Virus genome (UHGV): UHGV-1455077
Reading direction: 5' to 3' (one strand)
Source of the DNA: a virus
Length of the DNA stretch: 64,000 nucleotides
The notes under the pieces are model-generated. The model did not search any database. It had not been told where the DNA came from and worked only from the letters and a program-made list of their open reading frames with translations. Shown here piece after piece: positions 332 to 64,000 of this stretch (its first letter is position 1; every line of letters begins with the position of its first letter). The position numbers and the translations under genes were made by a program.

Positions 332-1516
332 ATGGGTACAAACAATTATCATCTTTATCAAAAAGAAAGAAGTCAAAATTATAATTATATTGACCGTGTA
401 GTAAAAAATTATTTGGAACAAGGTGGTGGACTTTTTCACATTTATCCAATGAAATCAATTATTGATAATAATGGTGGTGAACACGAAATTGGTACTTCTG
501 GATTTTATGTAACTGATGCAGTTTTTAATGAAAACTCTAAACGTAAATACTCCCGTGAAACCTTTGATTTATGGGGTGTTACAATGATGAATACACCAAC
601 ATTTTCTTTTAATTTTGATGGTTTATCATTATTAGATGGCGACCAAAAAGAGATTTCATTTCACTATAATTCAATGGTTGCTCAACTTGGTCGAAAAATT
701 TTAGTTGGAGATGTTATTGAATGGTCTTGGTTACGTGATTTAGATATTTTAGGTTCTGATGAAGCCGCTAATAAATTTTATCAAGTAACTTCATCTGAAC
801 GAGATGAAAAAGGATGGGCGGCAAACTACAAATATCATTTATGGAAAGTTAAATGTAAGCCTATTACTAATTCTCCTGAATTTGAAGATTTATTTAATTA
901 TGATAAAGAAAATGATTTTTATGAAGATGTTAATTCAGGTAATGGTGGTGGTGGTTTAGACCCAAATAATACCGCAGAATCAAGCGAATTAGATATAAAT
1001 GACCAAGTTTTAGAAGAAGCAGAATTAAAAGGGCCTTCATTCAGATTACACGATGAACATCATATTTATTTAGATGAAAACAATAGATTATACGATACTC
1101 ACGGTCGTTTTATTCCACAAGGTATAGATGGTATTCCAAATCAATTAAATTGCATTGATGTACCATTTGGAGAATTTTTTCCTGATTCATCAACTGTTAA
1201 AGATGGTGATTATTATTTAAGAGTAGATATGAATCCACCTAGATTATTTAAAAGATTTACAAATGAACAATCAAAAGAAGGCGGTTGGAGAATGGTTGAA
1301 TATGATAATAGAGAAAAATGGACAGGTGTTCCTATGGTATTAAGAAGTGTTATTAACAATGACACAACTGTTAAATTTGAAGATGGAGAAGTACAACCTG
1401 CTCGTCAAAATATTAAAGACCTTGTTAAAGCAAGAGTTAAAAAAGAACACGGCAAACCAAGACCTTGGAAAGATATTACAATTATTGAGCCAGATGCAAC
1501 TCCAACAGGTATTTAA
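332..1516 (+). CDS. hypothetical protein, possibly a virion protein (late-promoter motif upstream)
   Basis: 394-aa ORF with RBS TAAGGAAATACA before the ATG. ATAAATAT lies at 299..306, 25 nt upstream. A hairpin terminator follows the stop. Confidence 0.6.
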   Translation: MGTNNYHLYQKERSQNYNYIDRVVKNYLEQGGGLFHIYPMKSIIDNNGGEHEIGTSGFYVTDAVFNENSKRKYSRETFDLWGVTMMNTPTFSFNFDGLSLLDGDQKEISFHYNSMVAQLGRKILVGDVIEWSWLRDLDILGSDEAANKFYQVTSSERDEKGWAANYKYHLWKVKCKPITNSPEFEDLFNYDKENDFYEDVNSGNGGGGLDPNNTAESSELDINDQVLEEAELKGPSFRLHDEHHIYLDENNRLYDTHGRFIPQGIDGIPNQLNCIDVPFGEFFPDSSTVKDGDYYLRVDMNPPRLFKRFTNEQSKEGGWRMVEYDNREKWTGVPMVLRSVINNDTTVKFEDGEVQPARQNIKDLVKARVKKEHGKPRPWKDITIIEPDATPTGI

Positions 1517-15786: not shown

Positions 15787-15815
15787 AAAAGGAGTTTTAA
15801 ACTCCTTTTTTATTT
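15787..15815 (-). terminator. rho-independent terminator after the giant gene
   Basis: AAGGAGTT-tta-AACTCCTT followed by TTTTTATTTT. Confidence 0.6.
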
Positions 15816-23971: not shown

Positions 23972-26758
23972 TTACTTATCATTACTAACTGTTATAATTT
24001 CCCCATTAGCAGGTTGATTATTTAATATCACATAATTCATTTCTTGCTTTGCGGCTTTTTCAAGTGTAGATTCATCTGATGAATATGCAACTTCTTCAGT
24101 AACTATTTTATAATCATCTTTAGTTAATAATACTGGATTTTCACTATAAATGACACTATCTGTTGTATATTCTTTATCAATATAAAAATTAGTAATTCTA
24201 TAACGAGAAGAATTTACTTCTTGAATATTTTCAAAATACAATTTTTCATCATTAATAAAAATATATCCCATAAAAGAAGGTTTAGAACTTTTAATTTCAA
24301 TTTTATTACCATCATAAATATTATTTTTATTAGTTACAGTTGGTAAACCTAAAATTTCAATATTATCTTCATTGCTTGTTGGAGATGTTAAATTACTAAT
24401 TGTAATATCTATATTTTGTAATGGCATTATGACTAATTTATTATCATAAATATATGCTTTAACAATATTTTTTGTTGCCGATAAATTATTAATTGTATCA
24501 ACAGCATCTTGTAATGTACCTCTTTCTGGATGTTCTTTCATATATCCAGTTGAATTTTTATCTGAACCCCAAACAACATTATTTTTATTAATTCTTAATC
24601 CATTTGAACCATCTTTTAAAATTGGTGTATCTGTTGTTATATATGCTTTAGTTCCTTGAACATATGTACCTGTTAATTCTTGTAAAGGACTTCCAACATT
24701 ATTACTAAGTACGATACTTTTTCCCTGATTAGCAATCATAACTATATTATTATTATCTTTAATAATATTAAAATTAGATATACCAGAAGTTGATTGTTTC
24801 ATATATGTTATAAATTCATCAATACCTGTTATATTTTTTGTAATTTTGACAATATATGTTTTATTTCCAATAATAACATTTAAATTCTGATTTGAATGAA
24901 TTACTAAATTATTTGTTGGTATTGTTAATGACACATTACCTGGTTTATAGATATTATCACTTGAAATATCAAAATATGTACTATTATATTTTATTGGTGT
25001 TAATAAATTTATTAATGGCTTAATCATTACATTAACTTTTTCATTATCAGTTAATGTACCTGGAATTATAAATTTATTTTCTACATCATCGGTAATAAAT
25101 GTCATTATTGATTTAACTCGTGATGAACAATCTTTTTGTGTAGATTCTCTAAAATCAATAACATAATCATTTATATTATGTTTTTCTGCTAAATAACTTC
25201 CGTCTGCACCTCGTCTTATTCTTTTTAAAATATTATTTGCTTCATCAACTTCATAAAATTCAATAATTTCAGAATTAATAATTATTTTTCCTGGAGTAAT
25301 ATCTTTGTTTTTTTCAATAATTGGTAGTTTAAGAGCATTAATATTTTTAACATATATTTCAGAATCACCAATATTTAAATCTTTTGTTAATTGAGTAATT
25401 TTACTTTTACTAAAATTCATTTTATATTGATAATCTTTATAATCACACCCATATAATGAAGTTGGAACATTATTATCATCAACATTATAAATCATTAAAT
25501 ATGGTAATGGAGCAGATACACAAAGTTCAGATGGTCTTTCAACTTCATATGAAGGTCTTAAAAAACCACTACCATCAACATTAATAACATTGTTTGATTG
25601 TCCATAACGGTCTTCCCAAGTATATATTTTATCATATATATAATAATAATCAATAGTTGTTACAATTATATGTCCATTTTCCACAATTCTATTATCATAA
25701 TATTGATTATTTTCTTTATCAAATGGAAGATAAACTTTACCATCAACTAATTCCCAATTTGTTAATGGAACTCTTGTAATTTGTTCACTTATATCTCTTG
25801 TACCATTTGGATATTCAATATTAACAGTTATTTTATTACTATTAAATCCGCCTTCTGGAACATCAAAATACTCTGTACCATATTCTTTAAATTCTTTTAA
25901 TCCTGTATCTGATGACATTTTATTAAATGGATGTCCAACAAAAACCCAAGATTTTTTTTGACCATCTTTATTTTCAGTAATAACAAGTTTTTCTAAGTTA
26001 CGAATTGTATAAAATAATGTTAATAAATTATTTTCTAATGAATAATCAGTAATTTCTGTTTCTATTCCATTAAAATATGATGTTATTGTAATAAAATTAT
26101 GTTGTAATAAATCTTCATTTTCTAATTTAAATGTTTGTAAACCAACATTTACAAATTCTTTTATATAAGGATAATCAAAATTTTCATTATAATTAACTAA
26201 ACAATAATCATTAGTTACTGTTGGTGCATCATACAAAGTTGAATCATATAAAAATGCATCATATCCAGCCGTATCAACATTAAATGTTGAACCATTAATT
26301 GTAATTCCTTTAAAATGGCAATTTAAATAATCTTTAATATCATCTAAATTTTTAGTTTTATATGCATATAATCTGTTTGCCATATGTGTGTCCATATATT
26401 CAATATCAGATAAAGAACCTTGAGGGTCAACTGCTGATGTTACAGCATCATAACGAATATACATTGTTATATTATTTTTTTCTTGTTCTTTTGCCCCAGA
26501 AACATTTACATCATCTCGTTGAGAAGAATATTTTTCAATAAATTGTTCAAATTCCACGTGATAGGGCTTAATTTGATAAATGTAATCAATAACATCTTCA
26601 ATAACTGAATCTTGTTTATATTTTTTATTATTAACTGTTGAGTTAATACCAGTATAATTCACTAAACTGGTTTTTAATGCCCAATCAACGTTTTTTTGTT
26701 CTGAAAAAATATAATGCAATAAACCAAAAAATATTTTATTTTTATCTAATAATGACAT
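23972..26758 (-). CDS. large structural protein (928 aa), baseplate or fibre candidate
   Basis: ORF with RBS AAGGAA. Called from its position in the tail/baseplate module. Confidence 0.5.
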   Translation of the reverse strand: MSLLDKNKIFFGLLHYIFSEQKNVDWALKTSLVNYTGINSTVNNKKYKQDSVIEDVIDYIYQIKPYHVEFEQFIEKYSSQRDDVNVSGAKEQEKNNITMYIRYDAVTSAVDPQGSLSDIEYMDTHMANRLYAYKTKNLDDIKDYLNCHFKGITINGSTFNVDTAGYDAFLYDSTLYDAPTVTNDYCLVNYNENFDYPYIKEFVNVGLQTFKLENEDLLQHNFITITSYFNGIETEITDYSLENNLLTLFYTIRNLEKLVITENKDGQKKSWVFVGHPFNKMSSDTGLKEFKEYGTEYFDVPEGGFNSNKITVNIEYPNGTRDISEQITRVPLTNWELVDGKVYLPFDKENNQYYDNRIVENGHIIVTTIDYYYIYDKIYTWEDRYGQSNNVINVDGSGFLRPSYEVERPSELCVSAPLPYLMIYNVDDNNVPTSLYGCDYKDYQYKMNFSKSKITQLTKDLNIGDSEIYVKNINALKLPIIEKNKDITPGKIIINSEIIEFYEVDEANNILKRIRRGADGSYLAEKHNINDYVIDFRESTQKDCSSRVKSIMTFITDDVENKFIIPGTLTDNEKVNVMIKPLINLLTPIKYNSTYFDISSDNIYKPGNVSLTIPTNNLVIHSNQNLNVIIGNKTYIVKITKNITGIDEFITYMKQSTSGISNFNIIKDNNNIVMIANQGKSIVLSNNVGSPLQELTGTYVQGTKAYITTDTPILKDGSNGLRINKNNVVWGSDKNSTGYMKEHPERGTLQDAVDTINNLSATKNIVKAYIYDNKLVIMPLQNIDITISNLTSPTSNEDNIEILGLPTVTNKNNIYDGNKIEIKSSKPSFMGYIFINDEKLYFENIQEVNSSRYRITNFYIDKEYTTDSVIYSENPVLLTKDDYKIVTEEVAYSSDESTLEKAAKQEMNYVILNNQPANGEIITVSNDK

Positions 26759-26805
26759 TTGATTCCTTACTTTTTAATATAATTATTTATTGATTGATTT
26801 CTCAC

Positions 26806-26857
26806 GAATAAATATATATACAAAAGAATAAATATATATACAAAAGAATAAATATCT
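26806..26857 (+). repeat. tandem direct repeat, 20-bp unit x2.6 (GAATAAATATATATACAAAA)
   Basis: Units at 26806..26825 and 26826..26845, with a partial unit at 26846..26857. Each unit contains ATAAATAT, and the last copy sits 26 nt before the ATG at 26882. Confidence 0.7.
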
Positions 26858-26881
26858 TATTGATAACCAAAGGTTAAATTT

Positions 26882-27409
26882 ATGAGCTATTCAGGTTTTT
26901 TAAGTGACCCAGAGTATACACGCAGAAGTCAGGATGAAAATGTTACAGGAAATTGGACATTTGAACATATTGTGACTTGCAAAGAAGCTATTCGTGGTAC
27001 AGCTATTGCCACATATTATGGTGACTTAGCAGAATATTATACACATTCTGTTATGGAACAAATTCCTGTGGGAACTTTAGTTAAATTTGGTGGCGAAAAA
27101 GAAATTACAAAAACCCAACCTAATGATAAACATTGCTTTGGAATTATTTCTTCAAAACCTGGTATTGAATTAAATAAAAAAACTCAAGAAGGTGCATTAC
27201 CTGTTGCATTATGTGGTAAAGTTCCTTGTAGAGTTTCTGGAACAATTAAAAAATTTGAAAAATTAACAACTTCTAAAATTGCAGGTGTTGCAAAAAAGAA
27301 AACATTTTTAGATTGGTTACTCTTTAAACCAACAATTGGTATTTCTTTAGAAGAAAAAACTAAAAAAACTGAAAAACTTATTGAAATTTTTATGCACACT
27401 CATATATAA
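26882..27409 (+). CDS. hypothetical protein
   Basis: 175-aa ORF with RBS AAAGG. It is the first gene of a plus-strand island. Confidence 0.5.
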   Translation: MSYSGFLSDPEYTRRSQDENVTGNWTFEHIVTCKEAIRGTAIATYYGDLAEYYTHSVMEQIPVGTLVKFGGEKEITKTQPNDKHCFGIISSKPGIELNKKTQEGALPVALCGKVPCRVSGTIKKFEKLTTSKIAGVAKKKTFLDWLLFKPTIGISLEEKTKKTEKLIEIFMHTHI

Positions 27410-28279: not shown

Positions 28280-29015
28280 TAAAGCAAAATTAGTTAATGC
28301 TCCCTTAAACATTAACGATATGGATGAAGACTTAGAATCAAAAACTGTTTATGTATTTGATTATTCTAAGTCTTCATTACAAGGTTTAGATTTTTTAAAT
28401 TACATTAAAAATACAAGTGTTGTGTCAGATATTTTTATTTCTGCCGATGTGCCAACATTTACAAAAAATACATTATTAGAATCCTATATGAAATCATCAA
28501 CATTTTATCATATAACTTCATTTAATTTAACAATATTAAATATGATTTATATTATAAAAAAATCTAAAAAAAGAATAACTTGTACATTTTTTTCAGAAGA
28601 AGAATCTAATCAATTTATTAATACACATTCAGACTTACTAAATGAATGGATAAACGTGTATGATTCATTATTTGCTTATATGTTAATTTTATCTTCTATG
28701 GATAAAAATGATATTTTTAATAATGATAAAATTCGTTCTTTTTATGATGCTGATAAAATGAATAACAATTCATCATTATCTCCAAATGTTATGTCTTTAC
28801 TTCTTGATGATGTATTTTATTACTATTATGAAGATGGTATTAATCGTTCAAATGTATCATACTATAAAAAATATTTTGAAGAAAAATTATATGACAATAA
28901 ATCATTACAAATGATTTTATTAAATGATGCTAATTTTATTTTTAAAATATTATATGATATGGTTCATAATGATGAATTTAGTAAATATTTAGAAAATCAT
29001 CCAAATCTAAAATAA
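28269..29015 (+). CDS. hypothetical protein translationally coupled to the radical SAM gene
   Basis: 248-aa ORF overlapping the upstream gene by 11 nt. Confidence 0.5.
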   Translation: MTSNKAKLVNAPLNINDMDEDLESKTVYVFDYSKSSLQGLDFLNYIKNTSVVSDIFISADVPTFTKNTLLESYMKSSTFYHITSFNLTILNMIYIIKKSKKRITCTFFSEEESNQFINTHSDLLNEWINVYDSLFAYMLILSSMDKNDIFNNDKIRSFYDADKMNNNSSLSPNVMSLLLDDVFYYYYEDGINRSNVSYYKKYFEEKLYDNKSLQMILLNDANFIFKILYDMVHNDEFSKYLENHPNLK

Positions 29016-30422
29016 ACTTAATACCGAGTCCATAGATATATTTGTTGTATTAGTAATTTTTCCAATAATTGAAGATGGGTCATCAACCACTTTTAGAATA
29101 TATTTGCCTTTATCTTCCGACTCATTGTAATTTTCTATGGTTTTTTGTACTTGTAATACAAAATTTGTTTCATCTGCAAAACCTAATTTACGAGCTGTAT
29201 CAAGTAATTGAGATTTAAATTTATCCCAACGTTCTTCACTTGGAGCATCTAAAATACCTTTAATAAATGATACTGCGTTTTCAACAGTAAATTGAACGCC
29301 TTCTTTATATCTTTTATTTAAAAATGTTGCCATATTACCAGTAATTGATGAATTTATCATTGCTTTAAGATATGATTTACTTTCTTCACTTCCAAAAGTT
29401 GTTGTATAAGGTTCAACATCTAATAAATCATTTGTTATTCCTTCAAATTTAAAAGTAATATTAATTTCATTTGGTGCCCAACTACCAATTTTTCCTGTAC
29501 CAAAATCTATTGATGTAATTTTTGGATTCATATATGTATAAACCATCATTTTATCCATATACATTTCAATAACAGATATTTTATCAATGAAATTAAAATA
29601 ACTATCTAAATTCCATCCCCAATGAGTTGGGTCAGTATCAAATTTATGTAATAATATTTCCTTATTATAATCATTATAATCTTTACATAAAAATGTATCG
29701 TTAATTACTTTTAAATACGCAAAGAAAAATTGCTGAACTGGATTTTCTTTAACATCATAAAAAGAAATATTTAAATCACCATATGATAATTTTTCATTAA
29801 CTAAACGTGGACGATTATATTCATTAAATTGTTTAACTTCTATATCAATTTTTGGTTTACTAACTGTTTTAACAAATTTTGATAATTCAAATGATAATTG
29901 CTTTAATAAAAATTTATCAGGTAAATAATCTGCATTTGTTTCGGCATCAACATCTGCATTAAGACCTAATGCTCCACTAACCGCATCAGTAACTCCTTTT
30001 TTTAAATTTGAAAGAGAATTAGAAACTGATGAAATCGTATCAGATATACTATCTGATATTGTATCAAAAAATCCTTTATTCTTGCTTTCAGAAACAGAAT
30101 TTTGATAAGATTCAGATGCATCAGTTGAAGATTGTTGTGCAGAAAGTCTTGTTAAGTATTCAATTAATGATTTTTTTTGATTTATTAATGTTTGAATATT
30201 TGGATTTAATGAAAAATAAACAAAAAACATTGTTTCTGGTTTTGGTAAATTTGGAATTGGTGCTTTTGTTTGATATTTCTTTTGACCTTCCAAATTTGTA
30301 TATTCTGGAACAAAATCTTGACCATAAACGGTGCTGATATAATCAACACCACTTACTGCTTTTACAACGTTTGAATTATATAATTTATTAGTAACACCAC
30401 TAATTAATGATTCTATTCCCAT
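29007..30422 (-). CDS. hypothetical protein
   Basis: 471-aa ORF with a late motif 26 nt upstream. Confidence 0.5.
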   Translation of the reverse strand: MGIESLISGVTNKLYNSNVVKAVSGVDYISTVYGQDFVPEYTNLEGQKKYQTKAPIPNLPKPETMFFVYFSLNPNIQTLINQKKSLIEYLTRLSAQQSSTDASESYQNSVSESKNKGFFDTISDSISDTISSVSNSLSNLKKGVTDAVSGALGLNADVDAETNADYLPDKFLLKQLSFELSKFVKTVSKPKIDIEVKQFNEYNRPRLVNEKLSYGDLNISFYDVKENPVQQFFFAYLKVINDTFLCKDYNDYNKEILLHKFDTDPTHWGWNLDSYFNFIDKISVIEMYMDKMMVYTYMNPKITSIDFGTGKIGSWAPNEINITFKFEGITNDLLDVEPYTTTFGSEESKSYLKAMINSSITGNMATFLNKRYKEGVQFTVENAVSFIKGILDAPSEERWDKFKSQLLDTARKLGFADETNFVLQVQKTIENYNESEDKGKYILKVVDDPSSIIGKITNTTNISMDSVLSLF

Positions 30423-30443
30423 AAATAAATCTCCATTTTCTAT

Positions 30444-30456
30444 TATAAATATTTAT
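30444..30456. promoter_or_regulatory. divergent late-promoter core, palindromic (TATAAATATTTAT)
   Basis: The plus strand reads TATAAATAT toward 30492, and the minus strand reads ATAAATAT 26 nt before the ATG at 30422. The two divergent genes share one AT palindrome. Confidence 0.45.
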
Positions 30457-30491
30457 GTATTTTATATAAACTATATTTTTAAGGATAATTT

Positions 30492-30977
30492 ATGGCAAAT
30501 AAGAAGAAACTTGATGATGAATTTAATATTCTTACATCTTCAGAAATTAAACAAGCAAACGATATTGCCGCCGCATTAAGTGTTATCAATAAAGAAAATA
30601 TTGTAACAGAAATTGAACCAATGGAAATTAAAAAATTTATTGTTCAGCAAAATGAAAATATTAAAGATTTATCAAAATTATCATTAGAAGAAAAAACCGA
30701 AGTTGAATTAGACACAATTGCTAATCAAGCTGACCAAGCATTTGTTGATTTAATGGATATAGCATTAAATACTCAAGGTAAAGCCTGTGGAGATATTGCT
30801 TCTGCCGCTAATAATTTTTTAACAATTAAATTAAATTCTAAATTAGCAAAATTAGATGCTAAAATGAAAAAACTTAATTATGATTTAAATAAACAAAAAT
30901 TTGAAGCAAGTTTAAATAAACACAATGACGATGAAGACGATGATGAAGATGATGGTATTCAAATTATAAATGTTTAA
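30492..30977 (+). CDS. hypothetical coiled-coil protein with an acidic C-terminus
   Basis: 161-aa ORF with RBS TAAGGATAATTT. Confidence 0.5.
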   Translation: MANKKKLDDEFNILTSSEIKQANDIAAALSVINKENIVTEIEPMEIKKFIVQQNENIKDLSKLSLEEKTEVELDTIANQADQAFVDLMDIALNTQGKACGDIASAANNFLTIKLNSKLAKLDAKMKKLNYDLNKQKFEASLNKHNDDEDDDEDDGIQIINV

Positions 30978-53312: not shown

Positions 53313-56300
53313 TTAGCTATTACTACTTGATAATGCTCCAGTACGAACAATACGAATAGGAATATAAATTTGTTCAACACCTTTAACAATTTCAATAGCA
53401 ATTTCTGCCCACAATTCTTTACGACCAATTCTTTCAGAAGTATTAACTGAATTATCAGTAACTAATGTATAGTCATATAATTCATCTCTTGATACATAAT
53501 CATTTAAGATGCTTCTTAATGTTTTATCAAAATCACGTCTTAAAGCTTCTGTATTTGGTTGGAAGAAGAATGGTAAGCAAGCGGCATCTAATTCACGTTT
53601 TAATCTTAAAATAGTTAAGATTGCGTGTTCATCAGATAATGAAGATGAATAACTATTTTCAGTATTTTCACCCCAGAATAATAAACCTGTATTACGCTGT
53701 GGCATAATTGGGTTCATTGATTGAGCAACAATAACTTCACCCAAACTATCTCTAACTGTTACTGGTGCATATTCATTTTCATCTGTAATATAACCAACAG
53801 ATGCTAAATTCTTAACTTGACCATATTGAGTACCAGCGGCAAACATACCTCTTGGTAATACTAATAAGTTTTTCATTTTTGCAACTGAAGTTGGAACAGC
53901 AATATCTGAACCATCAACATTTGAAGTTAATCCCATTGGTGGATATTGACGTGTGATATAAGGACTTCTAATAACACGACCATCTAAACCGTGTGCTGAT
54001 GCATTATTTTGATTTGAACCCCAAGCAATAATATCATTAGCTTTTGGAGCTAATCTTGCTGGAGAATCACTGACAATATAGAACATTTCTTTTTTATCAG
54101 TATTCAAACTAATTAATTCATCATCCAATTCTGGATAACCTGTACAAGTTGCAAAGAAGAAGTCATAATCTTGAGAACGAATTTCATCATTAGAATTAAT
54201 AGCTTCTGCTAATGCTTTTATAATCATTGCTCTTTGAGCTTTTCGACCAAATAATCCTGCTCCATCAGTTGAATTACCTGAAATTGTTGCCCAACGAGTT
54301 GTTTTTGGGTTTGTTGAAGAACCTGGTGTTGGGAAATCTTTAGAAGCACCAACAGTAAATGTTCCACCTAATTCCTTAACAGCATTTTGATATTCATTTG
54401 TCATTTCTTTAACATTATTTGTTGAGTATAATGTATTGAATAACAACATACCAGCGGCATATGTTTGAGGATTTGGACAGTTAGGGTCAACATAATCTGA
54501 AATTAATAAATCTTCTGATTTTGTTGAAAATGGTGTATGAGTTGAATCTGCATAAGCAGGGCCTGCATTCTCACGTGCATCTGCAAATACAACGCCTAAA
54601 GGTGTAGTTTGGTCAGTATTATCAACTAATTCCCATTCACCTTCATAATATCTATACATTGTTGGATATTCATTTGCGGCTGTATCAATCCATAAATCAT
54701 ATTCTTGTAAAGCAGAACCATCTGCGTGTTGTGTTGGCTGTTCAGAAGTTACAAAAATGTCTGCACATTCGTACATATTTTTATAACCTTTCCATTCATC
54801 ACCATCATTAACCATAATATCAACATTTAATGCATCATTAAACCATAATGTACCATCTGTTGCAATTTCAGTTGGTTCAACAGCACTTGCAATATAAGTT
54901 GGTTCACTCCATTTTCCTAATTCTCCAGAAGCAATACCAACAGTTTCTAAGATTTTACCATCGGCAACATCTTGGAAATCAATAGTATTACCTGTTGAAG
55001 AAACTAATCTTAAATAACCTTCAGTTGTTACATCAGCAACAATTGTTGGAATTTTAGCATTATTAATTGCTTTAGCTAAATATTCGACTGTTGTTCCATA
55101 AGCTCTAATTGTATAAGTTTTAACTTCTGTTCCAATTAAAGTTCTAATTGTAAATGCTTCTCCTGATGTAATTGTTGGATTTGAAACTGTACCAACAACT
55201 TTTAATCCTAATGAACCATATTGTGCTAATCTTGTTTCTGCTAAACCTTCATTATCATATTTAACAATGATTGAACCAGAATTTAAAGAAGCACCTAAAA
55301 CTCTTTCAGCTTCAATAAATGAGCCATACATTGGCATTTTAATTGTTTTCCAAGAATCATTAGTTGAATTATATTGTTTCATAATATAATTTACACCATT
55401 ATTTGGTTCTGTTGTTTTAACCCAAATTGAACCTTGTACTGAACCATTTGGAACTTGAGAATGAGTTTTATGAACTAATGAAACGGCATTAACAACTGCT
55501 TCATCACCATTCATTACAAAACCTAAAGTTTCTAATGCTTTTCTTGAATCTTGAGTAATAGTTAATAAAGTTGCTGTATTTTTAATAACCAATGCATTAT
55601 TTTCATTGATTGCAACAATATTTTCAATTGATGCATTATTAATATCTTTAACAGCATCATCAATTTTTGTAGTTGATGATACACCACTTAATGTTACTTC
55701 TGTACCATTAATTGTAATTTTAGCTCCTGTATCATAAGTTCCATTTGCTTTACCTTTAGCACTTGAAGGGAATTGTAACATCCATTCATTTGAACCTAAT
55801 TCATACCATTCACTTGCAATATTTTCATAAATAACTTGTTTATTTCCTGATGTAACAACAGCAATATCATTATTTGCACCGTATGTTCCAAGAGGTTTAC
55901 CATCTTCACCAATTTCATTTTCTGATGGAATTAATACATTTTCAATTTTATCCCAAGCTAAAGCAGGACGAGAATTACCATTTGCTCTAAATAAACCATA
56001 TGAAGTTTCCGCAGTATCAAACCATAATGTTTGATTTGGAACGTTACTTGTTGGTTCTGCTTGAGTTGCCTGTAATTGTTTTAAGTCAATATCAGCTCTA
56101 AGTGCATATGCTAAAGATGAACTTCCTAAAGCACTATACAAAGCGTATAAACCAACTTCATTTAATTCATCACCTTGTTGAACTGTTCCATCATTTGTTG
56201 TATAATTTGGTATACCATATGTATCAGTAACATCTTTTTGTGAAGTCATAACAAGTAATTCATTAGCAACTGATTTTGAGGTACCAGGTGCAATTTCACC

Positions 56301-56426
56301 TGTACTTTCGTCAATAACTTTATCTTGTTCTGTCGCAAAGATATAAAGAGGAATTATCGGAGAAACACCTGTTCCATATGATGATTCATCTGTTATTTCA
56401 ATGTGAGATTTTGCTAATTCTGACAT
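53313..56426 (-). CDS. tail sheath protein (gp18-like, extended to 1037 aa)
   Basis: The C-terminal region (FFATCTGYPELDDE...LLFWGENTENSYS...LRLKRELDAACLPFFFQPN...YIPIRIV) corresponds to the conserved C-terminal domain of T4 gp18. Extra insertion domains are common in sheath proteins. Confidence 0.8.
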   Translation of the reverse strand: MSELAKSHIEITDESSYGTGVSPIIPLYIFATEQDKVIDESTGEIAPGTSKSVANELLVMTSQKDVTDTYGIPNYTTNDGTVQQGDELNEVGLYALYSALGSSSLAYALRADIDLKQLQATQAEPTSNVPNQTLWFDTAETSYGLFRANGNSRPALAWDKIENVLIPSENEIGEDGKPLGTYGANNDIAVVTSGNKQVIYENIASEWYELGSNEWMLQFPSSAKGKANGTYDTGAKITINGTEVTLSGVSSTTKIDDAVKDINNASIENIVAINENNALVIKNTATLLTITQDSRKALETLGFVMNGDEAVVNAVSLVHKTHSQVPNGSVQGSIWVKTTEPNNGVNYIMKQYNSTNDSWKTIKMPMYGSFIEAERVLGASLNSGSIIVKYDNEGLAETRLAQYGSLGLKVVGTVSNPTITSGEAFTIRTLIGTEVKTYTIRAYGTTVEYLAKAINNAKIPTIVADVTTEGYLRLVSSTGNTIDFQDVADGKILETVGIASGELGKWSEPTYIASAVEPTEIATDGTLWFNDALNVDIMVNDGDEWKGYKNMYECADIFVTSEQPTQHADGSALQEYDLWIDTAANEYPTMYRYYEGEWELVDNTDQTTPLGVVFADARENAGPAYADSTHTPFSTKSEDLLISDYVDPNCPNPQTYAAGMLLFNTLYSTNNVKEMTNEYQNAVKELGGTFTVGASKDFPTPGSSTNPKTTRWATISGNSTDGAGLFGRKAQRAMIIKALAEAINSNDEIRSQDYDFFFATCTGYPELDDELISLNTDKKEMFYIVSDSPARLAPKANDIIAWGSNQNNASAHGLDGRVIRSPYITRQYPPMGLTSNVDGSDIAVPTSVAKMKNLLVLPRGMFAAGTQYGQVKNLASVGYITDENEYAPVTVRDSLGEVIVAQSMNPIMPQRNTGLLFWGENTENSYSSSLSDEHAILTILRLKRELDAACLPFFFQPNTEALRRDFDKTLRSILNDYVSRDELYDYTLVTDNSVNTSERIGRKELWAEIAIEIVKGVEQIYIPIRIVRTGALSSSNS

Positions 56427-56503: not shown

Positions 56504-56533
56504 TTTATGAAATAGGGTAAAAATAAAGGGGTA
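56504..56533 (+). promoter_or_regulatory. sigma70-like promoter (TTTACA -N18- TAAAAT)
   Basis: Upstream of the leader hairpin and the gene at 56594. Confidence 0.35.
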
Positions 56534-56550
56534 AACACATAACGAAATAA

Positions 56551-56581
56551 TTTGAAAGATATTTATTAAATATCTTTCAAA
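56551..56581 (+). promoter_or_regulatory. perfect 15-bp-stem inverted repeat in the 5' leader, abutting the RBS
   Basis: TTTGAAAGATATTTA-t-TAAATATCTTTCAAA ends where RBS AGAGGA begins. No T-run follows, so it is not a terminator. A covarying copy precedes the paralog at 63768..63796. Confidence 0.55.
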
Positions 56582-56593
56582 GAGGATTTTATT

Positions 56594-57010
56594 ATGACTG
56601 ATATTAGTAAAATAAACATAGAAAGAATCAATGAGTTATCAACGAAATTAGATAATTTTAATACACAAATTAATAATATTAATTCAAAAATAAATTCAAT
56701 GAAATATGTTATTGATGCTAATTCTGATGGTAATCGTTGGTACCGAAAATGGAATGATGGATTTATTGAACAAGGCGGAAATAATATTATAAATTTAAAT
56801 AATGCTAATGAAGGAACAATTACATTTTTAACTCCATTTAATACTACTTCTTATATACCTCAAATAACTGTATATAATAGTAATGGTTCTTGGGTTTATG
56901 GTTGGATTAAATGGGATTCACGAACAAAAAATAATTTTATTTATTTTACTGCTGGTAGTAGAGCTGGTGATACTTCTAATGGAGCTTTTTGGTATGCTTA
57001 TGGATATTAA
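56594..57010 (+). CDS. hypothetical protein, paralog family A (N-term M-DISKI-N-RIN ... WY-KW-DGFIEQGG)
   Basis: 138 aa. A paralog begins at 63807 with the same N-terminal pattern. The stop overlaps the TerL-N stop (TTAA). Confidence 0.55.
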   Translation: MTDISKINIERINELSTKLDNFNTQINNINSKINSMKYVIDANSDGNRWYRKWNDGFIEQGGNNIINLNNANEGTITFLTPFNTTSYIPQITVYNSNGSWVYGWIKWDSRTKNNFIYFTAGSRAGDTSNGAFWYAYGY

Positions 57011-58083
57011 TAATATTCATATAACATTTCAAGAGAAAGACTTCTTATATATCCTTTTTCATCCATAATTTGCACAATATTATTTCCACCAATACAATTA
57101 TATTCTCGTTCAAAACGTTCAGCACCAACTTTTTTAATTTCAGCTTTTGCCCAATTTTCATCTTTTAATGGGCAAGCATCCCATCTAACTAATTGACTTT
57201 GAAATCCATTATTTCCATATGATTTTTTTGGAACAACATTAACAATTGTATTTTCATCTCTTAATGATTTAGCATATTCTTCTGCTTGGTCTTTATCTTT
57301 AAATAAATGAAAATCTCTATATAATTCACCATTAATTTCTAATATATAATCATCTGGTATATTCATTCCATAATCATCAATTTTGTTTTTAGCTCCTGAC
57401 CATAATCTAAAAAATAAATCTGTTTCAGAAATAGGAGTTGAAGTAATAAACAATTTACCTTGTGTAGCTGATAATGTTGGTGATAATGCACCATAAAATT
57501 CTTCTTGTTTCTCTAAAGCTTTATCTCCAGAATCTTGTACACCAATAAAAGCAAACTCATCACAATAAACAATTGCAGGAGAAATACCACGGGGAGCTTT
57601 AATAGTTGATGGTCTTACGTGAATTTCAGACCCATTATCAAAAACCATTTTTGATTTGTTATCTTCTTTTAATCCTTTCTTCAAAAAATCAGGACAATTT
57701 TCATACACACCTTTTATTTTTCCGAGGTTTTCCGATGCGGCACGCAAATCTTGAGCAGTTACCAAAATAATTTTATTATTAAATACCATTGCGTACCAAA
57801 GTAAATAAATGGCTGTTGTAATTGTTTTACCATTCTGACGAGAAAATAAAGAAATTAAAGAATGGTAATTATGCATATTAAACATCATTTCTCGTTGATA
57901 ATCAAATGGAATATATTGTTCCAAACCATTTCTATTAACCCAACAACAATGTTCGGCAAAAAACAACGCCCCATTAATTGGGTCATAAACTTTACGATAA
58001 ACCATTTTTTGAACATCTGTCATCTTTTTAAATGGTTTTGTTTTTTTAATAACACCAGTACCTTGAGGTAAAACAATTTTCAT
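57007..58083 (-). CDS. terminase large subunit, N-terminal ATPase half, ending in a 29-aa split-intein N fragment (TerL-N-IntN)
   Basis: Walker A SRQNGKT matches T4 gp17 SRQLGKT, and Walker B IVYCDEFAF matches T4 MLYIDECAF. FDYQREM aligns with T4 LADYQRDM. The extein end ...AERFEREYN aligns with T4 ...AQFRQEHTA. The final 29 aa, CIGGNNIVQIMDEKGYIRSLSLEMLYEYY, form intein block A (Cys1 plus hydrophobic strands). The ORF track extends to 58170, but the ATG at 58083 has RBS AAAGGAAAAATT. Confidence 0.8.
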   Translation of the reverse strand: MKIVLPQGTGVIKKTKPFKKMTDVQKMVYRKVYDPINGALFFAEHCCWVNRNGLEQYIPFDYQREMMFNMHNYHSLISLFSRQNGKTITTAIYLLWYAMVFNNKIILVTAQDLRAASENLGKIKGVYENCPDFLKKGLKEDNKSKMVFDNGSEIHVRPSTIKAPRGISPAIVYCDEFAFIGVQDSGDKALEKQEEFYGALSPTLSATQGKLFITSTPISETDLFFRLWSGAKNKIDDYGMNIPDDYILEINGELYRDFHLFKDKDQAEEYAKSLRDENTIVNVVPKKSYGNNGFQSQLVRWDACPLKDENWAKAEIKKVGAERFEREYNCIGGNNIVQIMDEKGYIRSLSLEMLYEYY

Positions 58084-58103
58084 AATTTTTCCTTTATTAA
58101 AAT

Positions 58104-58111
58104 TATTTATA
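58104..58111 (-). promoter_or_regulatory. late-promoter-like motif TATAAATA upstream of TerL-N
   Basis: Minus strand reads CGAATATAAATAATTT, 20 nt before the ATG at 58083. Confidence 0.35.
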
Positions 58112-58149
58112 TTCGCATATTTATAAAATATCTTGTTTTCAGTTTTACA

Positions 58150-58157
58150 ATAAATAT
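58150..58157 (+). promoter_or_regulatory. late-promoter-like motif ATAAATAT
   Basis: 31 nt before the ATG at 58189. Confidence 0.35.
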
Positions 58158-58188
58158 TCTTATAAAACATAGAAATATAAGGTTGATT

Positions 58189-59901: not shown

Positions 59902-59984
59902 TGCTCCAAAAGGTATTAAATAATAACACTTTTTGGAGCATATATATCAATTAAATGCTCCTAATTAGGAGCATTTAATTTTTT
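59902..59984. terminator. two adjacent terminator hairpins between convergent genes
   Basis: TGCTCCAAAA...TTTTGGAGCA at 59902..59940, then the perfect palindrome AAATGCTCCTAATTAGGAGCATTT at 59953..59976 followed by AATTTTTT. Confidence 0.6.
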
Positions 59985-61490
59985 CACAACATCTTTTGAA
60001 AATGCTTTCATAAATTTCAAAATATAAGTATCTTCTCCATTTTTTTCTTCATTAATACGATTTCGTTCCTCTCTTGTTAATGGTCTAAATGGATTATCAT
60101 TTTTACTCAATGCCATATCAATTTGAATTTGGCGATTTAACAAATTAAAACCAACAAGATTTGTAATTGCTTTATGACCACCTGACATTTTTTCAATTAA
60201 ATTTATTAAAGAAACACGCTGATTATTCATAAATTTTATCATTCTCATTGATTGTTCAGCACGAGCAGGATTCATATTTTCACACCAATATTTTGACATT
60301 CTTAATCCCATAGAAATGCCTATTTTATTATCAATGTCAACATCAAATTCTTTTCCACAATTTGGAAAATTACTATCAAAATCAACCATATTAAAACCAA
60401 TTAATAGTTTTTCTTTTTCAACTTCAATACCTTTTTCAAATTCTGCTTTTATAGCCAACAAAGAAACTGTCTTATCTTTCAACCAATGAGATTTAGCATA
60501 TTGTTCAAGAAACATATCATTTAAGACAATTTTCCCTAAATCAATTTTATCATCAACATTGGGATTCCACGGATTTCTTGAAACTTGCATCATACCCATC
60601 TCATCCCAAATCATAATAAAAAATTTAGCTTGTGGAAAAATTCTAAAAGCAGTATATCGTTCATAAGAACCAACTTTTTTCATATTTCCACCACCAACCT
60701 GAACAATACAATCACCATTTAAACATAATTGCCCATTCTTTAATATATCAATAATATTATAGTCATCTGTAATCTGACTTTTTGACTTTTGGTCATTAAA
60801 ATATGCTTCAACATTTTCGTTAATTTCTTCTGGTTTTTTATACCATCTTGAATCTTCTTTATTATTAGTATCAATCCAATCAATCAATTGTTTATAGATA
60901 GATACTAATGATGGTGAACATTGCAATACTAAATTAGACAGCCAAGCATTTTTATTTTTATAAGTTAATAGCAACTTATTACAAGCCAACGCCATCTTTA
61001 AATGTCGTTGTAAATGATTTTCATTTTTATCAAATTTAAATACAGCATTTCCAACTTCTTCAGGCATTATATTATATTCATTAAAACTTACTGAATCAAT
61101 CATATCAATTGCTTTTTCATCATCAGTAGAAAAAATACCACTTCCAATAATTGAAGATATAGTAGATGCATTTGATTTTGAATGTCTAAAATGAGTTGAT
61201 GAACCATCATAAACAATTTGTGATTGATGATGGTCAGTATGTATTTGAATAAATTTTTTTCCGTGAGAAAAATCAACCATTACTCCCATATTTCCTTCTT
61301 CTGGAGCTGGAATGTTATATTCACCATCTCCATAATTTACTTTATGAGCCGCAACAACTTCAATATCATATTTTCTTAAATATTCCTTCATTGCTAAAGC
61401 ACTTGTTACACCATCTAAGTCAATATGAAAATAAATTTCAGCTTTTTTATATTTTTTAGCTAATTGTTTAATATTTCTAATACCACTCAT
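59961..61490 (-). CDS. DHH-family phosphoesterase (RecJ/NrnA-like)
   Basis: Motif I is FHIDLDGVTSA. The DHH motif lies in IQIHTDHHQSQ. 509 aa. Confidence 0.7.
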   Translation of the reverse strand: MSGIRNIKQLAKKYKKAEIYFHIDLDGVTSALAMKEYLRKYDIEVVAAHKVNYGDGEYNIPAPEEGNMGVMVDFSHGKKFIQIHTDHHQSQIVYDGSSTHFRHSKSNASTISSIIGSGIFSTDDEKAIDMIDSVSFNEYNIMPEEVGNAVFKFDKNENHLQRHLKMALACNKLLLTYKNKNAWLSNLVLQCSPSLVSIYKQLIDWIDTNNKEDSRWYKKPEEINENVEAYFNDQKSKSQITDDYNIIDILKNGQLCLNGDCIVQVGGGNMKKVGSYERYTAFRIFPQAKFFIMIWDEMGMMQVSRNPWNPNVDDKIDLGKIVLNDMFLEQYAKSHWLKDKTVSLLAIKAEFEKGIEVEKEKLLIGFNMVDFDSNFPNCGKEFDVDIDNKIGISMGLRMSKYWCENMNPARAEQSMRMIKFMNNQRVSLINLIEKMSGGHKAITNLVGFNLLNRQIQIDMALSKNDNPFRPLTREERNRINEEKNGEDTYILKFMKAFSKDVVKKLNAPN

Positions 61491-61596: not shown

Positions 61597-62958
61597 ATGA
61601 GTATCTTAGAAGAACAATTATTAATGAGTGAAATAACATTTGGTTTTGAATTAGAAGCCTATGTAAATCAAAACAAATTAGTATTTAAAGATAATCATCA
61701 ATGGAAACACGATATTGAAAATGTTCCATTAATGACCAGAACTCAATTTGTTGATTATGATAATTTATATAAAAATTTAAAATATTTTTTTCAAACAAAT
61801 TATTTTGGTAATAGTTCTTTTTCTATTGATTCTGATTCTTCATTAAGATATAATGGATTTGAATTACAATCTCCTGTTTTTAATTTAACTCCAAAAAATA
61901 TTCAATATTGTATTAATTTTTTAATGGAATTATCAACAACACCATATCAAATTTATACTGATAGAACTTGTGGATTTCACGTTCATTTATCATTTCCAAC
62001 AATAACTCCAGAAGATGTTTATTGGTTAGAATGTAATTTAGCATTAGACGAAGATATGATAAAAAATTTATCTTCAATAATAAATCATAACGGAGCAATA
62101 ATTAATTTTATTACACCAACATATTCTTCTGATGATTATTTAGAAGATTTAAAAAATGCAATTATGAATGATAATTTTCAAGCAATATCTAGTGAATTAA
62201 ATGAAGAAAAAATGAGATTAATTCGTAATCATCCACAAGGAACACTTGAATGGCGAGGCCCAAGAAATTTCTTAAATAAACCTGATATTGAAGTTATTAA
62301 ACGTTTCTTTATGAAATTATATAAATTCGCAAAATGGATTTCTGATACATTAGAGAAAAAAGAAATTAACGGATATGATAAAAAAACATTTCTCAATTTA
62401 ATTAATGATTTTAATCCTCAATATAAAGAAGTTTTTAAAAAATCTTCAAAAATTTTAACAATTGTTGATAAAATTTTAAAAAAACCATCTTCATTATTAA
62501 ATCTAAATTTAAGTTTAAAAGATACTTTAGAAGTTGTTGAAACTATTTCTAAAAAGATTCCATTGCAAAAATTTACTTTAAATTTTGCCACAAAAAAATT
62601 ACCAGAAAAAATTTTAGCGGCATTTTTATTTTTATATCCACAATTTTTTAAATATTCAATTCAACATCAACCAATTCCTTATAAAGAATTAAACATTATT
62701 GATGGTGGATATTATTTAATTAACATTGTTAATGAAAATAAAAAATATTTAACTTTAAAAGATATTAAAAAAATTATTTTAGATGCTAATTTAACTTATT
62801 ATTCAACATTTGAAATTATTAGACAGATTTCTGTTAAATTAAGAAAAAATTTACTTACAAAATCTTTCTTATCTGCAATCGCTAATCATTTTGAAGGAGT
62901 TCCATATAGTGAAGTATTAAAGGATGCAATTGAATATACTCCAATATTTGATAATTAA
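61597..62958 (+). CDS. hypothetical protein, possible carboxylate-amine ligase (amidoligase/GCS2-like)
   Basis: N-terminal FGFELEAY (GxExE-like) and CGFHVHLSF (H-x-H) echo the glutamine-synthetase-like amidoligase pattern. Not confirmed. Confidence 0.3.
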   Translation: MSILEEQLLMSEITFGFELEAYVNQNKLVFKDNHQWKHDIENVPLMTRTQFVDYDNLYKNLKYFFQTNYFGNSSFSIDSDSSLRYNGFELQSPVFNLTPKNIQYCINFLMELSTTPYQIYTDRTCGFHVHLSFPTITPEDVYWLECNLALDEDMIKNLSSIINHNGAIINFITPTYSSDDYLEDLKNAIMNDNFQAISSELNEEKMRLIRNHPQGTLEWRGPRNFLNKPDIEVIKRFFMKLYKFAKWISDTLEKKEINGYDKKTFLNLINDFNPQYKEVFKKSSKILTIVDKILKKPSSLLNLNLSLKDTLEVVETISKKIPLQKFTLNFATKKLPEKILAAFLFLYPQFFKYSIQHQPIPYKELNIIDGGYYLINIVNENKKYLTLKDIKKIILDANLTYYSTFEIIRQISVKLRKNLLTKSFLSAIANHFEGVPYSEVLKDAIEYTPIFDN

Positions 62959-63102: not shown

Positions 63103-63135
63103 AAAAAGAGTGTCATTTGACACTCTTTTATTTTA
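63103..63135. terminator. bidirectional rho-independent terminator
   Basis: AAAAAGAGTGTCA-tt-TGACACTCTTTTATTTT. Confidence 0.7.
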
Positions 63136-63708
63136 TACAATTTGAATTCTTAATAAGTAATCAAAAACCAATGTAATATTTGATGTTTTAGAAATAGGAT
63201 AATGGCAAATATGAGTAATTAAATCACCTTTACTTGTTCTCAAACCAACTTCAGAAAAAGTATATTCTGAAATAATTTGAGAATCATTATTTAAAACATT
63301 TTGTTCTGTTGGCTCACCTTTTTCCAATGTACAATGAACTAAAATATCTGAATATACGTTACCAGTAACGTGTGAAACCGTCATATAATTACGAGTTTTT
63401 TCTAAATTATCAGTAATTGAATGTTGGTCAACAACTTTATAATATGTTTCATTATATAACGATGCTGTACGACCAATTGTCTGTGGGGTACTATATAAAA
63501 ATTCATTTGAAGCATTTACTCTAACACCGCCGTTACCAAAAACTAATTGTGTTATATATCCACCATTATTTGATAAAGAATTAGCTAAGGCGATTGAAAA
63601 ATTTTCAGGGTGAATATCATTATGTACATCTAAAAGAACTTTACCTGTTTCTTCCTCGTGAATTCTTAAATGACCTTTAATTTTTGGCTGACTATAATCT
63701 TTAAACAT
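63133..63708 (-). CDS. hypothetical protein
   Basis: 191-aa ORF with a late motif 28 nt upstream (63737..63744). Confidence 0.5.
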   Translation of the reverse strand: MFKDYSQPKIKGHLRIHEEETGKVLLDVHNDIHPENFSIALANSLSNNGGYITQLVFGNGGVRVNASNEFLYSTPQTIGRTASLYNETYYKVVDQHSITDNLEKTRNYMTVSHVTGNVYSDILVHCTLEKGEPTEQNVLNNDSQIISEYTFSEVGLRTSKGDLITHICHYPISKTSNITLVFDYLLRIQIV

Positions 63709-63736: not shown

Positions 63737-63744
63737 ATATTTAT
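63737..63744 (-). promoter_or_regulatory. late-promoter-like motif ATAAATAT
   Basis: Minus strand reads GCAATAAATATTTG, 28 nt before the ATG at 63708. Confidence 0.4.
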
Positions 63745-63767: not shown

Positions 63768-63796
63768 TTTGTGGTTATTTATTAAATAACCACAAA
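63768..63796 (+). promoter_or_regulatory. perfect 14-bp-stem inverted repeat in the 5' leader of the paralog gene
   Basis: TTTGTGGTTATTTA-t-TAAATAACCACAAA is immediately followed by RBS GGGGA. The centre ATTTATTAAAT is identical to the 56551 hairpin, and the outer stem differs by compensatory changes. Confidence 0.55.
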
Positions 63797-63806
63797 GGGG
63801 ATTATT

Positions 63807-64000
63807 ATGGCTGATATTTCAAAAATAGATATGAACAGAATTAATGGACTAATTGACAAATTTGAAGAAGTAATTAATAAATTAAATATGATAAGATATA
63901 TTGTTGAAGAATATCATTCGGGAACACAATGGTATAAAATATGGTCAGATGGTTGGATTGAACAAGGTGGTTATGTAATAAATCCATCATCTAATGAAAC
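63807..64000 (+). CDS. hypothetical protein, paralog family A (3'-truncated by the window end)
   Basis: MADISKIDMNRINGLIDKF...QWYKIWSDGWIEQGG parallels the protein at 56594. Confidence 0.5.
   Translation, partial: MADISKIDMNRINGLIDKFEEVINKLNMIRYIVEEYHSGTQWYKIWSDGWIEQGGYVINPSSNE

Follow-up and report, generated by a model that had tools for sequence, protein, structure and literature searches.

Every small receptor-binding (tail-fibre tip) gene of this human-gut jumbo phage is preceded by a 27-31-bp DNA palindrome whose fixed centre is two back-to-back copies of the phage's late-promoter box. The element therefore looks like a dedicated control and shuffling cassette for host-range genes rather than an ordinary RNA leader, although we hold this reading only tentatively, because no transcription start has been mapped and promoter activity is pure inference. 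Receptor-binding proteins set phage host range, and how large phages regulate and diversify many alternative fibre tips is poorly understood. The lineage is a prevalent one, as a single cluster of these proteins was seen on 269 contigs.

A family of covarying palindromes ahead of tail-fibre genes

We began with an initial annotation of 64,000 nucleotides of UHGV virus genome UHGV-1455077 (the window), which had noted two paralogous genes each preceded by a perfect-stem hairpin abutting the ribosome-binding site. Both palindromes were confirmed. Copy 1 reads TTTGAAAGATATTTA-T-TAAATATCTTTCAAA (15+1+15) and copy 2 reads TTTGTGGTTATTTA-T-TAAATAACCACAAA (14+1+14), and both are perfect. They share ATTTATTAAAT and the outer TTTG/CAAA, and the middles of their stems are fully compensated. 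In copy 2 the variable part is 5 nt (TGGTT/AACCA), whereas the 6-mers of the initial annotation include one core base. Each palindrome ends directly at the SD (CAAA|GAGGA in copy 1 and CAAA|GGGGA in copy 2), and the two downstream proteins share 45% identity over their first 62 residues. Features are collected in the table below, in which sequences from other phages are designated, as in the text, by L numbers.

Positions of the palindromes and associated features in the window
Position	Strand	Feature	Basis
56551-56581	.	Palindrome copy 1 (31 bp); arms 56551-56565 and 56567-56581, centre base 56566 (T on the + strand)	Covariance model hit, 46 bits; DNA hairpin -10.4 kcal/mol
56560-56572	.	Invariant 13-bp core TATTTATTAAATA; minus strand reads AATAAATA, the perfect late -10 box; + strand reads ATTAAATA, with a mismatch at -12	Role of A(-12) from PMC7892883
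56561-56571 and 63777-63787		Shared 11-mer ATTTATTAAAT of copies 1 and 2	
56582-56593	+	SD GAGGA and spacer, directly abutting the foot of the palindrome	Unpaired in the consensus fold
56594-57010	+	138-aa tail-fibre tip / receptor-binding protein, predicted N-terminal helix plus gp53-like_C beta-sandwich	Pfam PF21882 at its cutoff; AF2 model pLDDT 79; Foldseek top hits R1/R2 pyocin fibre C-termini; a cluster member is named "putative tail fiber protein"
63768-63796	.	Palindrome copy 2 (29 bp); core 63776-63788, centre 63782 (T on the + strand)	Covariance model hit, 49 bits; DNA hairpin -10.7 kcal/mol
63807-64000	+	Paralogous fibre-tip gene, cut by the window end	131 aa in L150
56502-56508	-	Separate consensus late box (ATAAATA on the minus strand) for the divergent tail-sheath gene, 42 nt from the palindrome	
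63738-63744	-	Separate consensus late box for the divergent gene 63133-63708, 23 nt from the palindrome and 29 nt from that gene's ATG	
53313-56426	-	Divergent neighbour of copy 1: tail sheath	
63133-63708	-	Divergent partner of copy 2 (phrog_11259, function unknown); ATG 59 nt from the palindrome	Partner genes in 17 of the 24 other divergent contexts sit at the same 54-63 nt
57007-58170	-	Convergent terminase ATPase gene, overlapping the fibre-tip gene's stop by 4 nt with no terminator between them	Same arrangement in L206 and L192

The two copies belong to a family with at least 9-10 copies per ~285-kb genome in AT-rich (26% GC), T4-superfamily jumbo phages from the human gut. To assess how strictly pairing is maintained, we compared 22 distinct sequence variants from two phage clades. 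Of 290 cells, 99.7% were Watson-Crick paired, with double-sided compensatory changes at 7 of 14 pairs, in 65 cells, whereas slid controls paired at only 40-50%. There was no one-sided change and not one G·U pair, and the single imperfect copy is C·A on the gene strand. A covariance model built from these variants found only the two sites in the window, with the next best hit at 20 bits. Hairpin z-scores were -7.0 and -4.6 for copies 1 and 2 when folded as DNA, and -4.8 and -2.9 as RNA in 81-nt context. In contrast, the 11-mer core alone is not significant (5 matches against 2.2 expected), and its other three matches in the window, at 10196, 15168 and 27985, are in coding sequence and are not palindromic.

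The element precedes only tail-fibre or receptor-binding genes. These come from at least three unrelated N-terminal families, and so the element is not specific to one paralogous family. Every MxDxSK family member found in these jumbo phages has the palindrome, and thus the initial annotation's own test, a search for family members lacking the hairpin or breaking its pairing, is passed. In the main clade the palindrome is 8-13 nt from the ATG in most copies, with the foot abutting the SD within 0-2 nt, and 20-23 nt from the ATG in four contexts. In the second clade (L192 and L218) it lies 18-41 nt from the ATG, and two palindromes each sit between head-to-head fibre paralogs. Searching for the two L218 palindromes found only that contig.

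Megablast of the 11-kb region against the phage collection gave no match, and tblastn of the small protein against the same collection gave one weak hit only. A loose pattern search of IMG/VR returned mostly chance hits and had to be filtered for palindromy, and a scan of the genome collection gave only chance matches plus one 283-kb bin that is the phage itself, and thus no host clue. A terminase-based synteny search recovered only close relatives and L214, which has no fibre gene there. The closest cultured relative by sheath, Vibrio phage 2.275.O, has no such palindrome in 43 kb around its sheath gene.

The late-promoter box at the palindrome core

Interestingly, the invariant 13-bp centre, TATTTA(T/A)TAAATA, carries the phage's late -10 box (ATAAATA) back to back on both strands, such that the two boxes share the central base pair. 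In the window, 18 of 60 ATAAATA occurrences lie 10-45 nt before a start codon, far more than for any one-base variant; for TTAAATA the figure is 5 of 117, and two of those five are the hairpins themselves. The motif sits upstream of the sheath, portal and baseplate genes, the window encodes a T4-type portal, baseplate wedge and sheath, and the same motif is reported for the Rak2-like jumbo phages CBB and GAP32 (PMC5259590). The palindrome centre is position -12, the adenine that T4 gp55 flips into a deep pocket (PMC7892883). The centre base is only ever T or A, and only the strand that carries A has the full consensus.

Few contexts show another promoter. In 48 of 51 distinct contexts there is no ATAAATA on the gene strand within 500 nt upstream, where chance predicts about 12 occurrences against the 3 seen. 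Several palindromes begin 0-6 nt after a terminator or 1 nt after a stop codon. In the second clade, the two palindromes between head-to-head paralogs place their perfect box 25 and 30 nt from one ATG, which is the normal late-promoter distance, and no other late box is present. The initial annotation had proposed sigma70-like upstream signals, but this claim is not supported, as no + strand sigma70-like site lies upstream of 56594, the one weak site upstream of 63807 lies inside the neighbour's coding region, and site counts do not exceed those in shuffled sequence. Its description of the genes as antisense among minus-strand late genes is right for the immediate neighbours.

Given these observations, we tentatively infer that the element is a fibre-gene-specific, palindromic (bidirectional) late-promoter cassette that acts on DNA. 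A late-sigma RNA polymerase would start about 6 nt past the box, in the conserved CAAA/TGAA at the foot of the arm, giving a short leader that carries the SD. With T at the centre, the fibre gene would get the weakened box (ATTAAATA, 16-22 nt before the ATG in most main-clade copies) and the perfect box would fire the other way, either toward a divergent partner gene or straight into an abutting terminator; with A at the centre, the fibre gene would get the perfect box. However, in about 93% of copies, including 9 of 9 in one complete genome, the perfect box faces away from the fibre gene, which would then depend on a box lacking the key A(-12). The centre state does not correlate with the presence of a divergent gene (Fisher p = 0.43), and the arms are richer in G/C than true late-promoter downstream regions, which are T-rich. 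Moreover, a plain promoter does not need complementary arms. We suppose that the arms stay complementary because the element works, or is copied and repaired, as an intrastrand DNA hairpin or cruciform, but what the hairpin does mechanistically is the least certain step. The same cassette head appears to serve as the junction for exchange of fibre genes, since identity between swapped cassettes (L317 against L004, and L277 against L264) ends exactly at the outer left edge of the palindrome.

Alternative explanations

The initial annotation argued that covariation indicates a conserved RNA stem-loop rather than a protein-binding DNA site. We found this partly supported. The compensatory changes make a sequence-reading dimeric DNA-binding protein unlikely, but the step from covariation to RNA is not established. 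An RNA leader, acting either as a 5' or processing-site stabilizer that keeps the SD accessible or as an operator through which a factor binding the apex co-regulates translation of all fibre-tip genes, is less likely than the promoter model but remains a live rival. RNAalifold recovers the same helix and leaves the SD and AUG unpaired, the proximity of foot and SD in most main-clade copies is naturally explained, and the G/C enrichment of the arms relative to surrounding DNA favours stem stability. The apical 5 bp plus triloop and the basal 4 bp are conserved, as in protein-bound RNA hairpins such as the T4/RB69 gene 43 operator (PMC3014915), and in three operon-type contexts (L001, L153a and L149) the element must be present in read-through RNA. 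An outer helix sequestering the SD or AUG, seen in single folds, was absent from the consensus. On the other hand, the lack of G·U pairs is unexpected for RNA, and the one C·A pair would be a U·G wobble on the opposite strand. The RNA model also leaves the identity of the core with the late box as a coincidence, no promoter is recognizable upstream in most contexts by sequence alone, and in the second clade the hairpin is not next to the SD, while the two divergent arrangements would need fully overlapping transcripts. The best Rfam hit, to a miRNA model, was a chance match (16.6 bits against a gathering score of 70).

It is less likely that recombination is the primary function, with the palindrome extruding as a cruciform or folding in single-stranded DNA, then being cut or used for template switching, and the late-box core being secondary. 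In keeping with this idea, different strains carry different stem-plus-gene units at a fixed locus, the same stem occurs in up to 6 genomic contexts, the same N-terminus occurs behind different stems, and the proteins are N-terminal x C-terminal mosaics. Strict Watson-Crick perfection and T-to-A centre flips are also what hairpin-templated strand switching produces, and PeSL cassettes set a precedent for regulatory motifs that act as exchange points (PMC4122927). Yet a jump in divergence at the start of a fast-evolving receptor-binding gene is expected anyway, no nuclease or recombinase has been linked to the element, and neither the fixed orientation of the centre base nor the need for a late-box core is explained. 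This reading is not exclusive of the promoter model. Very unlikely is an intrinsic terminator or insulator that would stop antisense late transcription through the fibre gene before the next late promoter. Copy 2 does score as terminator-like on the minus strand, about half of the contexts have a T-rich run after the hairpin on that strand, and the fibre gene's stop overlaps a convergent gene. No + strand terminator-like site was called at either copy. However, the T-run is inconsistent (copy 1 has TTATTTCG, and several contexts have none), and several contexts have a classical terminator immediately beyond the palindrome, which makes it redundant. The stems are AT-rich, unlike the phage's real terminators, which have GC cores flanked by A and T runs, and the constant feature is the fibre gene on the other side. 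Equally improbable is a double-stranded operator for a dimeric regulator reading TTTG...TATTTA-T-TAAATA...CAAA. Its conserved blocks are symmetrical and the element is confined to one functional class of genes, but such a protein gives no reason for the variable 4-5 bp to stay complementary, or for both arms to change length together (8 against 9 bp), and the outer block differs between clades (TTTG/CAAA against TTCA/TGAA) while pairing persists.

Relation to known systems and variation at the centre base

The core contains the exact box that precedes late genes of this window at 25-30 nt, corresponding to the gp55 -10-like box TATAAATA of T4-type late promoters and ATAAATA of Rak2-like jumbo phages. 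Ordinary late promoters, however, are not palindromic, whereas here two opposed boxes overlap and are flanked by 7-10 bp of covarying complementary arms. If the promoter reading is right, this is a new promoter architecture for T4-type late transcription. It also offers a handle for finding host-range genes in uncultured phages by a DNA motif alone. PeSL/PmSL cassettes of T4-type phages (PMC2839356, PMC4122927) likewise combine a stem-loop with a promoter motif at the boundaries of swapped modules. A PeSL, though, is a terminator stem-loop followed by a separate sigma70-type early (or Mot-type middle) promoter in hyperplastic regions of non-structural ORFans. Here there is no TTGACA/TATAAT pair, the late box sits in the apex of the stem-loop, there is no U-run on the gene side, and the cargo is always a structural receptor-binding gene.

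Start-associated sequences (SAS/ESAS) of Cluster K mycobacteriophages (PMC3203893) are also phage-specific repeats a few bp before the start codons of a subset of genes; half carry an inverted repeat and their function is still unknown. SAS is an asymmetric 13-mer that contains the SD, ESAS arms have a consensus sequence, are imperfect and are separated by 4-13 bp, and the genes marked are non-structural and from many families, whereas the arms described here vary freely but pair perfectly and the targets form one functional class. Translational operator hairpins (T4/RB69 gene 43; MS2 coat protein) share a conserved apex next to or near the ribosome-binding site, but they are single-copy, short stems that tolerate non-Watson-Crick pairs and are known to act in RNA. 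The present element is multicopy, has a 13-14-bp strictly Watson-Crick stem and can face genes on both sides. Even under the RNA reading it would be a multicopy post-transcriptional regulon for fibre genes, and none has been described. An N4-type DNA hairpin promoter, recognized as a 5-7-bp hairpin, was not supported, as the stem is longer and the 2454-aa virion protein has no RNA polymerase domain match.

Invertible promoters and tail-fibre inversion switches (fimS-type invertons; Mu Gin / P1 Cin) also place inverted repeats around a promoter determinant for host-range or surface genes. We speculate that the palindrome could be a minimal invertible late promoter in which the invertible segment is the single central base pair, although we consider this unlikely. 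Only the strand carrying A at -12 can feed the late sigma's adenine pocket, and flipping T to A would redirect the promoter into a fibre gene or, in the second clade, between two alternative head-to-head paralogs. The complementary arms would make the flip possible through hairpin-mediated template switching, giving a stochastic, recombinase-free way of varying which of roughly 10 receptor-binding tips are strongly expressed. No recombinase has been identified, none having been looked for beyond the window annotation. If the central base pair acts as a direction switch, it would be the smallest phase-variation device known. Both centre states exist in natural populations, with T or A at four loci in near-identical strains, but flips were seen only between assemblies, not within a population, and without read-level data. 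For instance, strains L356 and L001 differ at 4 positions in 1090 nt, and one of those is the centre. Only one other polymorphism was seen inside any palindrome, in L140.

Two palindromes and the genes they precede

The window contains two perfect palindromes, which share the core ATTTATTAAAT and the outer TTTG/CAAA and differ in the middle by fully compensated changes. Each ends directly at the SD of a plus-strand gene, and the two gene products are 45% identical over their first 62 residues. Both palindromes lie in divergent intergenic regions, copy 1 next to the tail sheath gene. A covariance model that we built later from the wider family found only these two sites in the 64 kb, at 46 and 49 bits compared to 20 bits for the next hit. 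The original observation stands. A sequence upstream of copy 1, GGGGTAAACA, is shared with the syntenic locus of sister genomes (L131) and resembles the foot plus SD of the element (CAAAGGGGATAA); it may be a relic of an earlier cassette head. Sequence similarity between the genomes ends about 15 nt before the palindrome.

Coordinates of the palindromes and associated features, in the window and in related sequences (L numbers).
Sequence	Coordinates	Strand	Feature
Window	56551-56581		Palindrome copy 1, perfect, 15+1+15
Window	63768-63796		Palindrome copy 2, perfect, 14+1+14
Window	53313-56426		Tail sheath gene, next to copy 1
Window	63133-63708		Gene next to copy 2
Window	57007-58170		Convergent terminase large subunit gene
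L214	563-1738		Terminase homologue, 67% identical
Window; L206; L192	57007-57010; 3426-3429; 1770-1773		4-nt overlap of the stops of the fibre-tip gene and the convergent downstream gene
Window; L131	56526-56539; about 1432-1445		Possible relic of an earlier cassette head
L153; L264	899-1491; 9602-10169		Tandem cassettes and fused genes
L218	4312-4338 and 9808-9836		Palindromes between head-to-head paralogous fibre genes
Window	about 26800-26860		Three tandem copies of a ~20-bp unit carrying the late box
Window	23972-26758	-	Gene flanking the tandem units
Window	26882-27409	+	Gene flanking the tandem units
Window	30443-30457		Two late boxes overlapping face to face
Window	30492-30977	+	Gene served by the face-to-face boxes
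Window	29007-30422	-	Gene served by the face-to-face boxes
Window	15810-23174		2454-aa virion structural protein (phrog_10938)
Window	59961-61490 and 61597-62958		Divergent pair, DHH-phosphoesterase-like and amidoligase_2-like

To understand what these genes encode, we examined the 138-aa product of the first, which hits Pfam gp53-like_C exactly at its cutoff. Many homologues carry that domain in precomputed annotation, and one cluster member is named "putative tail fiber protein." An AlphaFold model (pLDDT 79) shows a long N-terminal helix plus a beta-sandwich, and its best PDB matches are the receptor-binding C-termini of R1/R2 pyocin fibres. The window as a whole is 26% GC and encodes a T4-type portal, baseplate wedge, sheath, family B DNA polymerase, and a split terminase. 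The sheath is about 33% identical to those of Rak2/121Q-like jumbo phages and of a 349-kb Vibrio phage, and near-identical contigs of 283-287 kb come from human-gut metagenomes. The terminase large subunit gene encodes only the N-terminal ATPase part (387 aa), whereas its homologue in L214 carries an extra N-terminal segment of ~110 residues and is followed by a radical-SAM-like gene instead of a fibre gene. The fibre-tip gene and the convergent downstream gene overlap at their stops with no terminator between them in the window, in L206, and in L192, and each transcript must therefore run antisense into the other gene.

A family of covarying palindromes

To determine how widespread the element is, we combined a protein search of IMG/VR, a loose pattern scan filtered for palindromy, a scan based on a protein alignment, and pattern scans of the metagenome and genome collections, which together gave about 50 distinct genomic contexts. 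Every gene starting M-x-D-x-S-K that was found in these jumbo phages has the palindrome. Pattern matches with mismatches were, with one exception (L140), unrelated chance hits with no fibre gene downstream. The main clade has 17 distinct stems, four of which have the basal G-C pair replaced by A-T (TTTA...TAAA). A second clade from another sample (L192 and L218) adds four more stems; L192 sits at the syntenic position beside the terminase and has six pairs changed, all compensated. Each complete genome has at least 9-10 copies.

On an alignment of 22 distinct sequences, 99.7% of 290 cells are Watson-Crick paired, compared to pairing of only 40-50% in slid controls. Double-sided change was observed in 7 of 14 pairs, in 65 cells, and there is no one-sided (G·U) change. 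When flanks were included, only this helix was conserved, and the SD and AUG were unpaired.

The late-promoter box and its genomic context

Upstream regions of the window's genes show a clear late motif, [A/C]ATAAATAT, 25-30 nt before the ATG. ATAAATA occurs 60 times, 18 of them 10-45 nt before a start codon, and no one-base variant comes close. The same motif has been proposed as the late promoter in the Rak2-like phages CBB and GAP32 (PMC5259590), and it resembles T4's TATAAATA. The part of the palindrome that never varies is the 13 bp TATTTA(T/A)TAAATA, which is two opposed boxes that overlap at their upstream ends. The strand with A at the centre reads AATAAATA, and the other reads ATTAAATA. 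In the T4 open complex the adenine at -12 is flipped into a deep gp55 pocket (PMC7892883), and the centre of the palindrome is exactly that position. In most copies the centre is T on the fibre-gene strand, so the perfect box points away from the fibre gene.

We next compared the surroundings of the palindrome across contexts. In 29 of 51 contexts the left neighbour is a divergent gene whose ATG is usually 54-63 nt from the palindrome, and in most of the contexts inspected that gene's own late box lies 22-25 nt from the palindrome. In the rest the left neighbour is co-directional, and the palindrome starts 0-6 nt after a classical terminator or 1-25 nt after a stop codon. No ATAAATA was found on the gene strand within 500 nt upstream in 48 of 51 contexts, where chance predicts about 12 occurrences compared to the 3 seen. 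Sigma70-like sites, which the initial annotation had described upstream of both genes, were not above shuffled expectation.

The genes behind the palindrome are not one family. They include the small gp53-like_C proteins, a 171-aa tail-collar-like protein, fusions of both, and, in the second clade, 190- to 370-aa proteins with a different N-terminus. Some genes fuse the MxDxSK N-terminus to a tail-collar-like C-terminus, and cassettes can be tandem, with the next palindrome starting 1 nt after the stop of the preceding fibre gene (L153 and L264). In the second clade the palindrome is 18-41 nt from the ATG. Two palindromes (L218) each lie between two head-to-head paralogous fibre genes, which share N-termini and differ in their C-termini; the perfect box sits 25 and 30 nt from one ATG, with no other late box present.

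Polymorphism, exchange, and interpretation

The centre base is A instead of T in a minority of copies and differs between near-identical strains at four loci. For example, L356 and L001 differ at 4 positions in 1090 nt, one of which is the centre, and L330 and L153 are identical for 400 nt up to the centre. All such changes are T/A, and only one other polymorphism was seen inside any palindrome (L140). At fixed loci, strains carry different stem-plus-gene units, and identity ends exactly at the outer left edge of the palindrome; in one case it resumes at the downstream terminator. The same stem occurs in up to six contexts, and the same N-terminus occurs behind different stems. The fibre-tip proteins (P0002-P0018, and those of L006 and L330) are themselves mosaics, in which N-terminal types (MADISKIDMERING..., MADTSKLPISRVD...) combine freely with C-terminal types, with the junction near WYRKWNDGFIEQ. 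L330 carries an expanded NNNFNII heptad repeat in the N-terminal helix.

Pairing potential is under strong constraint, which makes a sequence-reading dimeric operator unlikely, as the initial annotation had argued. Its further inference to an RNA stem-loop is weak, however, given the strict Watson-Crick pairing, the late box on both strands, the lack of any recognisable upstream promoter in most contexts, and the bidirectional use in the second clade. We therefore tentatively favour a DNA-level, fibre-gene-specific palindromic late-promoter cassette, although no transcription start is known, the perfect box mostly faces away from the fibre gene, and a promoter as such needs no arms. Under this hypothesis the central base pair would decide which direction gets the full box, and the arms would be kept complementary because the element acts or is repaired as an intrastrand DNA hairpin. 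An RNA leader or operator appears less likely, and a primary role as a recombination signal, which would be compatible with either of these models, is doubtful. A minus-strand terminator and a duplex operator both seem very unlikely. We also cannot exclude the more speculative and improbable possibility that the element is a single-base-pair invertible promoter.

The closest described analogues are T4-type late promoters, PeSL cassettes (PMC2839356, PMC4122927), the SAS/ESAS repeats of Cluster K mycobacteriophages (PMC3203893), and translational operator hairpins (PMC3014915). None has a promoter box in the apex of a covarying perfect palindrome tied to receptor-binding genes, and the nearest cultured relative examined lacks the element in 43 kb around its sheath gene. 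Elsewhere in the window, TTATAAATATTTATG holds two late boxes overlapping face to face on opposite strands, the opposite geometry to the fibre-gene palindrome, and three tandem copies of a ~20-bp unit carrying the late box (GAATAAATATATATACAAAA) lie in another divergent region. A consensus late box precedes the gene for the 2454-aa virion structural protein, which has no Pfam domain. In the divergent DHH-phosphoesterase-like and amidoligase_2-like pair, which sits among the structural genes, a sigma70-like TTGACA promoter faces the first gene and a late box faces the second.
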